A stretch of 15,515 bases of DNA, taken from UHGV virus genome UHGV-0099607. One strand, given 5' to 3'. The stretch is from a virus. Numbering within the stretch: position 1 is the first letter of the stretch; each line of letters begins with the position of its first letter. Position numbers: made by a program. Below are positions 12,001 to 15,000 of this stretch, piece by piece.

Positions 12001-15000
12001 CATCCTTGAATAGCCGACACCTTTGCATCTTCCGCATTCTTTCTCAACAACTCTCCCCCACTGCTCTGTTTTTGCTATATCAACCGCACGGCCTGTACCG
12101 TGACAATCTCTGCATCTTGCGCCAGGCGTCGCGGCACTACGGCAATAATCCGCATAAGCGAATGTTGCGAGCACTTGCAGTACCTTTGCCTTAGTATTTC
12201 CTTCGAGCTTTGCCACACCACGGTATTTCCCCGATACCTTGTGTGCAAATTGCATCAGATAGTTGATAGCCTTTTGTTTGTCGTTCTGGCTGAGTTCGTG
12301 CTTACCACAGAATGCAGCCATTCCGAATCCGGCTTGTGATTGCGCCATCCCCATAGCAGCCATCACATCAGTAGCTCCCTGTGTGCATCCAACTGCCTTA
12401 GCAAGTGTTGTTTGAGAGATATTCAGTGACTCTCGATATTTTCGTAGGTTGCTCATATGCCCTCCATAGTAACCATGAAACAATAATACGATATGTACTT
12501 TTAGAATGCAAACAAAAAATACATCTTGTGCATGGATGGTTTTAGTACAGAGCGTAATAATAAGGGTATGAAAATGAAATGGTATGAACTGGCTAGATCC
12601 AGAATGAAAGAGCTCGGCATAACTCAAGAGAAGTTAGCTGAAGAGCTTGGTATGACGCAGGGTGGAATTGGTCACTGGTTGCGCGGATCTCGTCATCCAT
12701 CTCTTGACGAGATTGGTGTGGTGTTTAAATACCTTGGTATTGATAACGTCTCATTCAACCACGACGGTACATTTTCACCTGTTGGCGAATACTCATCTGC
12801 CCCCGTTAAAAAACAATATGAGTACCCTGTTTTTTCTCATGTTCAGGCCGGGATGTTCTCGCCTGAGCTTAGAACCTTTACCAAAGGTGATGCGGAGAGA
12901 TGGGTCAGCACAACCAAAAAAGCCAGTGATTGTGCGTTTTGGCTTGAAGTTGAAGGTAATTCCATGACCGCGCCAACAGGATCCAAGCCAAGCTTTCCTG
13001 ACGGGATGTTAATTCTCGTTGACCCTGAGCAGGCTGTTGAGCCAGGTGATTTCTGCATAGCCAGACTTGGTGGTGACGAGTTTACCTTCAAGAAACTGAT
13101 CAGGGATAGCGGTCAGGTGTTCCTACAGCCACTAAACCCGCAATATCCAATGATTCCATGCAATGATAGCTGTTCCGTAGTAGGGAAAGTTATCGCCAGC
13201 CAGTGGCCTGAAGAGACATTTAGTTAACAGCCTCACCACTCTAAAACACACAACAATAACCCGACCTTAGCGTCGGGTTTTCTTTTTCCAAAATATAAAC
13301 CCATTAAATACAAAGCGTTATAAAAAACTAATTATATTTAGAACATTTTGTATTGACTCGATAAAGTACAAATCGTACTATTTAGCCATCAGCAGGACGC
13401 ACTAACCACCATGAAGGTGAGGCTCTTAAAAATTAAGCCCTGAAGAAGGGCAGCATTCAAAGCAGAAAGCTTTGGGGTGTGGTGAAGCTCAACGGCGAGC
13501 TAGGGAATAGTTTTGCGGTGAAGATTCTAGACAACTAACCGCAGGATGCGCGTAACCCAATCGGCAGCGCACCGATGGAAGCTGGTTCGACTCCAGCCAC
13601 CACACCACCAAAGCTAACTGACAGGAGATGAACATGAAACATAACGAACACTTTATGGCTTGGTTGAAGTCAATGCGTGATGAAGCAAAGCGTCCTGAAA
13701 CAACAATGACGCGAATCGTGGAAATCTTCTCCTGCATCAGCAAGTACGCAACCTGCCAATAACTGTCGGCCCCGCTGAGGGGCCATTTATCTGAGGATGA
13801 TATATGGACTCTCAAACACGCCGCCGCGAACGTCGCGCAGAGAAACAGGCTCAATGGAAAGCAGCAAATCCCCTGTTGGTTGGGGTAAGCGCAAAACCAG
13901 TTAACCGCCCTATTCTCTCGCTGAATCGCAAACCGAAATCACGAGTAGAAAGCGCACTGAATCCGATAGACCTTACAGTGCTGGCTGAATACCACAAACA
14001 GATTGAAAGCAACCTGCAACGTATTGAGCGCAAGAATCAGCGCACATGGTACAGCAAGCCTGGCGAACGCGGCATAACATGCAGTGGACGCCAGAAAATT
14101 AAGGGAAAATCGATTCCTCTTACCTAGTTACTTAGATATTGGCCTTGGCTTTATCTCAATATTATATGGATCATAGCTGGCAACTAATTCAGTCCAGTAA
14201 ATATCCTCAATAGGGAATAATATATGCTTCCCGTTCCATCGGGAAAAAGTTTTGTTCAACACACCAAGCTCAATCAACTCACTAATGTATGGGAATTGTT
14301 TTGATGTAACCACATACTTCCTGCCTTCATTAAGGGCTGCGCACAAAACCATAGATTGCTCTTCTGTAAGGTTTTGAATTACTGATCGCACTTTATCGTT
14401 TTGCATCTTAATGCGTTTTCTTAGCTTAAATCGCTTATATCTGGCGCTGGCAATAGCTGATAATCGATGCACATTAATTGCTAGCGAAAATGCAAGAGCA
14501 AAGACGAAAACATGCCACACATGAGGAATACCGATTCTCTCATTAACATATTCAGGCCAGTTATCTGGGCTTAAAAGCAGAAGTCCAACCCAGATAACGA
14601 TCATATACATGGTTCTCTCCAGAGGTTCATTACTGAACACTCGTCCGAGAATAACGAGTGGATCCATTTCTATACTCATCAAACTGTAGGGGTTGTAATA
14701 GTTTATCCGATTTCTCGCTGTAGGGGTACACGAGAACCACCGAGCCTGATGTGGTTAAAAGACAGGCACAATCTTTACTACCGCAATCCACTATTTAAGG
14801 TGATATATGGAAGAAGAATTTGAAGAGTTCGAAGAGCATCCGCAGGATGTAATGGAACAGTACCAGGACTATCCGTATGACTACGACTATTGATAAGAAT
14901 CAATGGTGTGGACAATTCAAGCGATGCAATGGATGCAAGCTGCAATCGGAATGCATGGTTAAGCCTGAAGAAATGTTTCCTGTAATGGAAGATGGGAAAT

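Follow-up and report, generated by a model that had tools for sequence, protein, structure and literature searches.

The immunity region of the virus genome UHGV-0099607 raises the question of what a 17-bp motif shared by its right (OR) and left (OL) operator regions represents, and which protein reads it. The window analysed is the whole stretch of 15,515 nt, and motif scans were run over all 15.5 kb. A first-pass annotation had proposed that the motif is operator-like, differs from the operators of phage lambda, and marks a distinct immunity specificity placed onto a lambda-like backbone. We find that it very probably represents the operator set of a lambdoid switch belonging to the VT2-Sakai immunity type, with a dimer of the cI repressor as the predicted reader. 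Putative operators of that type have been annotated before with this motif, and the specificity it carries is not novel.

The similarity from which the analysis started is reproduced as described: AAAGTACAAATCGTACT (13363-13379) and the reverse complement of 12485-12501 are identical at 15 of 17 positions. A cross-match of this quality appeared in 13 of 2000 dinucleotide-preserving shuffles of both regions (P = 0.0065). The shuffled regions are very AT-rich (33% and 25% GC), and a 14/17 match was obtained in as many as 147 of the 2000 shuffles, which lends some credit to the idea of a chance similarity between two AT-rich promoter regions with no common binding function. This explanation is nevertheless effectively refuted and its probability is negligible, as 15/17 is rarely reached, the sites are dyadic, six copies lie at promoter-relevant positions, half-sites are selectively invariant, and distant relatives have the same layout within DNA that is unalignable (see below).

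The window contains six dyad-symmetric 17-mers with the consensus W-A-R-T-A-C-N5-G-T-A-Y-T-W (Table 1). Three sites compose OR, between the cI ATG (12568) and the ATG of a truncated cro gene (cro', 12456), with centre-to-centre spacing of 33 and 26 bp. The other three compose OL, at the leftward promoter pL and upstream of nutL and N (N at 13804), and are spaced by 33 and 25 bp. In the 17-bp register, A5 and C6 are present in all 12 half-sites and A2 in 11 of them. When the pattern AGTAC-N5-GTACT is searched with up to one mismatch, its sole matches in the window are 12485-12499, 12544-12558 and 13365-13379, corresponding to OR1, OR3 and OL1. In addition, a weight matrix made exclusively from VT2-Sakai operators was used to rank the whole window, and OL1, OR1, OL2, OR3 and OL3 turned out to be its five highest-scoring positions. 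The first-pass annotation had listed two weaker copies in OR at distances of 27-30 bp. Both exist (12518-12532 and 12544-12558), but the spacing is 33 and 26 bp and the copy at 12544 is no weaker than OR1. Dyad symmetry of the sites and two further copies in OL (13340-13354 and 13307-13321) had not been given there.

Positions of the sites were compared with promoters found in a consensus promoter scan. OL1 and OR1 both cover the spacer and the first -10 bases of pL and of the rightward promoter PR, in equal register, and the geometry of lambda OL1/OR1 suggested for the motif is thus borne out. Downstream of PR, a GGAGG Shine-Dalgarno sequence precedes the ATG at 12456 on the minus strand. On the other side of OR, the cI start is most likely 12568 (MKMKW...), on a predicted leaderless mRNA, because relatives begin with MKxxW and a -10-like AATAAT lies 6 nt upstream. 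The corresponding GTAATAAT or GTATAAT is located 6-7 nt before the ATG in the phage L, Klebsiella, Vibrio and Proteus relatives introduced below, all of which open with MKxxW. Start codons of cI differ among public records: in AP005153 it is the equivalent of 12532, and in Nil2 and vB_EcoP-720R6 that of 12574. The proposed start would put the centre of OR2 near -43 and that of OR3 near -17 relative to the start of the cI promoter PRM. In lambda, OR2 is near -42 and OR3 near -19 relative to the PRM start, and the cI mRNA is leaderless.

The cI protein has 219 residues and is comprised of an N-terminal HTH_3 domain (Pfam, E = 8e-11) and a Peptidase_S24 domain (E = 9e-29), and its C-terminal half is close to that of lambda cI. 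The recognition helix reads TQGGIGHWL. Similarity of the N-terminal domain to the lambda repressor domain is distant (PDB 1LLI, E = 5e-4 over 39 residues) and the N-terminal arm of lambda repressor is missing, in agreement with the initial description of this domain as non-lambda. Lambda operators (TATCACCGCCAGTGGTA-type 17-mers) gave no match in the whole window with up to three mismatches, so the motif does differ from them as claimed, and the possibility of lambda operators hidden in OR or OL was rejected.

At the same time, the lambda operator and that of the window are more aptly regarded as diverged relatives than as unrelated sequences. This suggestion follows from the same 17-bp length, from A2, A5 and C6 common to the lambda half-site TATCAC and the window half-site WARTAC, and from conserved repressor residues. 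DNA-contact residues of lambda repressor are known from established structural work; of these, the window repressor keeps equivalents of Q33, Q44, G46 and G48, and changes S45 and A49. Both systems have three 17-bp dyads each in OR and OL, with OR1/OL1 over the spacer and -10 and OR2 near -42/-43 of PRM, a cI mRNA that is leaderless (known in lambda and predicted in the window), and a near-identical S24 domain. They differ in operator spacing, which is 24 and 23 bp in lambda and 33 and 26 bp in OR of the window, and in Cro, which in the window type is an HTH_3 paralogue of the repressor domain, unlike lambda Cro. Such a diverged relationship may explain the weak binding of lambda CI reported in PMC10742460.

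The window was also compared with phages in which this operator set has already been annotated. VT2-Sakai operators were listed in 2023 (PMC10742460, Table S1) as OR1 AAGTACATATTGTATTT, OR2 ATGCACAATGTGTATTT, OR3 TATTACGCTCTGTACTG, OL1 TAGTACGATATGTACTT, OL2 CAATACAATTTGTTCTA and OL3 TACAACGCTTTGTATTT. They pair one-to-one with the window sites on the opposite strand; nearly all differences are central or flanking, and one inner half-site base differs in OL3. Features annotated as "putative operator" in AP005153 map exactly to 12485-12501, 12517-12533 and 12543-12559 of the window, and this record holds three more at OL as well as promoter features. The comparison with operator sets of known lambdoid types, proposed as a check in the first-pass annotation, therefore places all six sites in correspondence with both the list and these features. 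In electrophoretic mobility shift assays (EMSA), lambda CI bound VT2-Sakai sites with micromolar apparent affinities (PMC10742460 and its predecessor).

In DNA sequence, the immunity region is 98.3-99.6% identical to those of vB_EcoP-720R6, vB_EcoP-683R2, Louie, Dewey and phi458, and 92-93% identical to AP005153, AP005154 (Stx2 phage II), Nil2, 2851, 2B8 and the PA series. Phages vB_EcoP-720R6, Louie, Dewey and phi458 represent the window's own subtype (98-99.6%). Among the Shiga toxin (Stx) phages, residues 1-69 of cI are 94-96% identical in VT2-Sakai (AP000363), AP005154, AP005153 (Stx1-converting, Morioka V526) and Nil2 (AJ413274); for the N-terminal domain of VT2-Sakai the identity is 94%. 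These phages share with the window an identical recognition helix and six 17-bp operators with the same half-sites at corresponding positions. They differ in the central operator bases and in the DNA between operators, in the distance from OL to the cI start (785 bp in the window and 1.8-2.3 kb in Stx phages), and in cro, which is truncated and fused to Q only in the window. Of the initial claim about specificity and backbone, the non-lambda specificity and the lambda-like placement of operators stand. The specificity is however shared with the VT2-Sakai, Stx2-II, Stx1-phage and Nil2 type, and the backbone is a gtrV SfV/SfI-like mosaic with large deletions.

Lack of conservation in prophages with the same repressor DNA-binding domain had been named as a sign that the motif arose by chance, and conservation was examined by comparative footprinting. 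Relatives of the N-terminal repressor domain are encoded on at least 237 IMG/VR contigs. From these, the best 80, in which the domain is identical, were combined with two Stx phages and vB_EcoP-720R6, resulting in 27 distinct OR and 27 distinct OL sequences. Variable columns amount to 2/60 in half-sites, 11/30 in the central 5 bp and 57/136 outside half-sites (Fisher P = 3e-9), and the sole two variable half-site columns fall in OL3. Pairwise alignments with Stx phages, inspected by eye, show the same tendency, as substitutions gather between operators and in operator centres. To our search, this comparative analysis is the first quantitative support found for the VT2-Sakai "putative operators" being under selection as dyads with uncontacted centres.

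Conserved blocks might alternatively be promoter elements (-10, -35 or UP-like A/T tracts) or sites of host nucleoid proteins. Some half-sites do fall on promoter hexamers: the left half of OR1 on the PR -10, the right half of OL1 on the pL -10, and the right half of OR3 on the proposed PRM -10. Invariant half-sites are, on the other hand, found also in spacers (12495-12499 and 13365-13369) and, in OL3, far upstream of pL, where RNA polymerase imposes no sequence. Furthermore, outer half-site bases covary with the repressor/Cro helix, and OR and OL match within each phage, which would not be anticipated for host-factor sites. We consider this alternative very improbable.

The covariation is best seen in more distant relatives. 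N-terminal domains 43-55% identical to that of the window repressor were found in Salmonella phage L, Salmonella 103203_sal5, Klebsiella ST11-VIM1phi8.3, Vibrio phage P2 and Proteus Pm34, and their cI-cro spacers are unalignable to the window. Exact TAC-N5-GTA is nevertheless present twice in the OR regions of five of the six relatives tested (expected 0.03-0.16); in Salmonella sal5 the second copy is immediately upstream of the annotated intergenic stretch. The distance between OR1 and OR3 in relatives is 58-61 bp. Across genera, a change in the recognition helix goes with a change in the outer bases of the half-sites. Helices TQGG(I/L)GHW and TQGAIGHW in the window, Stx phages, phage L and Klebsiella are accompanied by the half-site A(A/G)TAC, SQSAIAHW in Vibrio by ATTAC, and SKGAVGHW in Proteus by TATAC. 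The OL of each phage carries its own half-site version, as in the Vibrio OL, AATTACAAATTGTAATT. The footprint, the layout in distant relatives and this covariation are three independent comparisons, and each indicates that the sites amount to more than an annotation made by analogy.

As an illustration, immC of Salmonella phage L encodes a C2 repressor with an N-terminal domain ~54% identical and the recognition helix TQGAIGHWLNG, together with a Cro that is closely similar by eye. Its OR has the sites AATAC-N5-GTACT, AATAC-N5-GTGTG and AATAC-N5-GTAAT, spaced by 34 and 26 bp, and its OL has three exact TAC-N5-GTA sites. Differences include the other host genus, intergenic DNA that is otherwise unalignable, and a different C-terminal region. 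The VT2-Sakai immunity type is in this way tied to phage L. We tentatively suggest, as a possibility short of even odds, that the E. coli Stx-type phages, the C2 repressor of Salmonella phage L and the Klebsiella prophage form one cross-genus immunity group whose repressors could cross-repress each other's early promoters, because the operator code W-A-R-T-A-C-N5-G-T-A-Y-T-W and the helix TQG(G/A)(I/L)GHW are common to all three. In the wider family, half-site positions 2-3 would track the first helix residues, and if this is true, immunity specificity could be deduced from sequence by means of this relation.

The window type also resembles phage 434 in having a paralogous HTH_3-type repressor and Cro with near-identical recognition helices, which read the same dyads in 434. 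The 434 operator is the 14-bp ACAA-N6-TTGT, and its repressor is known for indirect readout of the operator centre. Central operator bases in the window are not conserved, consistent with a 434-style indirect readout. The 434 repressor was absent from PDB matches of the cI N-terminal domain, and no significant sequence match to it was obtained.

The comparisons show the six sites with their symmetry and promoter overlap, half-sites that are conserved where centres are not, and covariation with the recognition helix; for binding, activation and cooperativity we draw on the lambda and 434 paradigms. A cI dimer would bind each 17-bp dyad through its helix-turn-helix (HTH) N-terminal domain, probably reading 5-6 outer bp on either side and leaving the central 5 bp unread. 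Repressor on OR1 and OL1 would cover the spacer and -10 of PR and pL, and block RNA polymerase. When bound to OR2, ~43 bp upstream of the putative leaderless start, cI may activate PRM as lambda OR2 does, while occupation of OR3 on the PRM -10 would shut off cI at high repressor levels. The lambda-like S24 domain would permit RecA-stimulated self-cleavage and hence prophage induction. In intact relatives the paralogous Cro (TQGAIGHWE) is expected to read the same sites.

Intact Cro of the VT2-Sakai immunity type, as in phage vB_EcoP-720R6, is a 71 aa protein. With 35% identity (E = 4e-12) to the N-terminal domain of cI, it is an HTH_3 paralogue that has TQG(G/A)IGHW in common with this domain, and its helix TQGAIGHWE is nearly equal to TQGGIGHWL in cI, as expected for two proteins reading one operator set. 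In the window, Cro is cut at residue 28, inside the recognition helix, and fused to Q, leaving only the repressor side of the switch.

Several observations weigh against the proposed switch, or parts of it. With Cro destroyed, the full two-protein switch cannot operate in this prophage. OR2 ranks eighth in the window and scores no better than the best match in a shuffled window, and the middle site is degenerate (at least two mismatches) in the Vibrio and Proteus relatives. Phages that have the repressor domain in identical form differ in the A-run at 12513-12519, between the PR -35 and OR2. Its length ranges from 5 to 8 bases, shifting the spacing between OR1 and OR2 from 32 to 35 bp. PRM was not detected by the consensus promoter scan, its position and the leaderless start being predicted from the features described above. 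Finally, a literature search returned lambda CI EMSAs and work on the 933W repressor, and no binding test with the cognate repressor.

Some of these points would agree with only two true operators per region (OR1 and OR3, OL1 and OL2), with OR2 and OL3 not bound specifically. Such an arrangement would differ from the three-site logic of lambda and resemble phage 933W, which has a repressor of different specificity, fewer sites, and no cooperativity between adjacent sites. The score of OR2 lies within the shuffled maxima, the only variable half-site columns are in OL3, and both the degenerate middle sites and the variable A-run point in the same direction. Against this, half-sites of OR2 are invariant over the 27 variants while its central bases vary, and in four cases (the window, the Stx1-converting phage, phage L and the Klebsiella phage) the middle site has a single mismatch and is placed 32-34 bp from OR1 and 25-26 bp from OR3. 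The position of OR2 relative to the proposed cI start likewise matches that of lambda OR2. Two-site regions are accordingly rather unlikely, and three operators in each region are favoured. Strict helical phasing of OR1 and OR2, and hence lambda-style cooperativity, is uncertain because spacings differ from those of lambda and the A-run length varies.

The motif itself thus offers very little that is new, since a defective prophage carries a common, annotated immunity type present in many Stx phages. Its bearing on induction of Stx phages is indirect only, and the practical value is in annotation (cI start at 12568).

Table 1. Positions of operators, promoters, genes and other elements in the window.
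Feature	Position	Strand	Sequence	Dyad core (position; centre)	Description	Score (bits; VT2-Sakai weight matrix for operators, Rfam for the cIII element)
OR1	12484-12500		TAATACGATATGTACTT	AATACGATATGTACT (12485-12499; 12492)	Overlaps PR spacer and -10	18.4
OR2	12517-12533		AAATACATCTTGTGCAT	AATACATCTTGTGCA (12518-12532; 12525)	Poorest consensus match	11.1
OR3	12543-12559		TAGTACAGAGCGTAATA	AGTACAGAGCGTAAT (12544-12558; 12551)	Right half on putative PRM -10	15.1
OL3	13306-13322		AAATACAAAGCGTTATA	AATACAAAGCGTTAT (13307-13321; 13314)		15.0
OL2	13339-13355		TAGAACATTTTGTATTG	AGAACATTTTGTATT (13340-13354; 13347)	Adjoins pL -35	16.7
OL1	13364-13380		AAGTACAAATCGTACTA	AGTACAAATCGTACT (13365-13379; 13372)	Perfect dyad AGTAC-N5-GTACT in pL spacer/-10	20.5
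PR promoter	12483-12512	-	TTTGCA-18-TATTAT		Consensus scan; -35 TTGCAT/TTTGCA, -10 TATTAT; drives cro'-Q fusion	
Putative PRM -10	12556-12561	+	AATAAT		6 nt before cI ATG 12568; overlaps OR3 right half	
pL promoter	13353-13381	+	TTGACT-17-TACTAT		Consensus scan	
cI repressor	12568-13227	+			In-frame ATGs 12568 and 12574; HTH_3 N-terminal and lambda-like Peptidase_S24 C-terminal domain	
cro'-Q fusion	11842-12456	-			Cro residues 1-28 in frame to residues 32-207 of lambda-like Q; junction near 12372	
Terminator-like hairpin	13258-13279	+			3' of cI	
nutL boxB	13437-13451	+	GCCCTGAAGAAGGGC		pL leader; same as in lambda	
gtrA, gtrB and 417-aa gtrV-like type-specific glucosyltransferase	50-2582	+			97% to SfV O-antigen serotype-conversion cassette; kept at prophage end	
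Baseplate_J	4345-5403					
GP46 baseplate gene	5390-5818					
Terminase large subunit	6446-8179				Almost directly adjoins baseplate genes (junction ~6250-6446)	
cIII thermoregulator element	15288-15346	+			Rfam Lambda_thermo; right end	88.5

The window is a deleted, mosaic remnant of a gtrV serotype-converting SfV/SfI-like prophage, in which the operators still gate pL, and PR into the Cro'-Q chimera. Over positions 1-6158, the window matches serotype-converting phages of Shigella (SfV, SfI and SfII) with 97% identity, and this part comprises the gtr cassette followed by tail-fibre and baseplate genes. Because terminase adjoins the baseplate genes, genes for portal, capsid, sheath, tube and tape-measure proteins (head and tail) are missing, and the prophage cannot make particles. 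From ~10015 on the sequence is lambda-like, with lysis genes, Q, the pL-nutL leader, N and the cIII thermoregulator. The cro'-Q fusion deleted cII, O, P and the nin region, and brought Q directly under the control of PR and OR. Its junction was absent from the 5,426 complete E. coli genomes searched, and the exact fusion protein was found on only 4 assembly contigs; the fusion is for this reason treated as a recent deletion and not as a selected design.

Two tRNA genes, tRNA-Thr(TGT) and tRNA-Asn(GTT), are located on the minus strand at 11412-11567. They separate Q from the holin gene, an arrangement also present in phage 21 and SfI. Upstream of N, a 44-aa open reading frame (MKHNEHFMAWLKSMRDEAKRPETTMTRIVEIFSCISKYATCQ; 13628-13785, plus strand) uses the equivalent of the Shine-Dalgarno sequence of lambda N, and has no Pfam match. 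It is followed by a GC-rich hairpin with a weak T tail (13768-13784), and then by N with its own ribosome-binding site at 13804.

An unannotated gene for a tRNA-like RNA was observed at 13474-13610 on the plus strand, between nutL and N. It is a more unusual feature of the window than the operators, widespread in enterobacterial phages, and merits a separate look. The z-score of its minimum free energy fold is -4.2. The acceptor-like stem measures 9 bp and the central arm is long; of the other arms, one is D-like (AGCUC-AAYGGC-GAGCU), one is invariant (AUCGG-CAGCGCA-CCGAU) and one is a T arm (GCUGG-UUCGAYU-CCAGC). Compensatory changes were detected in 14 of the 34 consensus pairs among 69 distinct sequences. 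Homologues with 74-92% identity were found in 114 phage records, and none of the six records inspected has the gene annotated. They occur in three contexts: the interval between cI/pL and N, the interval between Q and holin, and beside ordinary tRNA genes in virulent Skate-/Akira-like Salmonella phages. Among the matches listed, a 36-nt core is present in more than 120 IMG/VR contigs. Of 185,579 species-representative bacterial genomes, only 4 have this core.

At one aligned position of the central loop, which reads TCTAGA in the window (~13530-13535), five different Watson-Crick palindromes of 6 nt occur (TCTAGA, TCGCGA, ACTAGT, ACCGGT and GCTAGC), and a sixth version, TCTGGA, is self-complementary with G-U pairs. 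As self-complementarity is kept while the loop sequence changes, this pattern suggests that the RNA may form a kissing-loop homodimer. A search of Rfam assigned the RNA to no family and gave only sub-threshold matches to transfer-messenger RNA (tmRNA), and ARAGORN makes no call at this position. The possibility that the central loop holds the tag frame of a tmRNA was rejected, as the three loop types, inspected by eye, have no consistent frame or stop. A remnant of a tRNA 3' end at an attachment (att) site was rejected too, the 5' acceptor strand being present and covarying.

Near-identity of the pL leader to that of lambda extends to AAAGCTTTGGGGTGTG and resumes at CACACCACCAAAGCTAACTGACAGGAGA. 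Flanks of the tRNA-like module (13463-13483 and 13598-13634) are near-identical to both strands of the long N-leader stem of lambda, which we take to be the RNase III processing site upstream of N, while the lambda interior between these strands is different and 96 nt long. The module therefore looks like a cassette exchanged inside a conserved N-leader stem. In the N-leader copies of the RNA, the extra 8-10 bp of stem covary too. Separately, in Salmonella phage Akira, positions 1211-1400, just upstream of the tRNA-like gene and tRNA-Met, gave sub-threshold matches to permuted tmRNA (29 bits, E = 0.011) and beta-tmRNA, possibly indicating another unannotated structured RNA.

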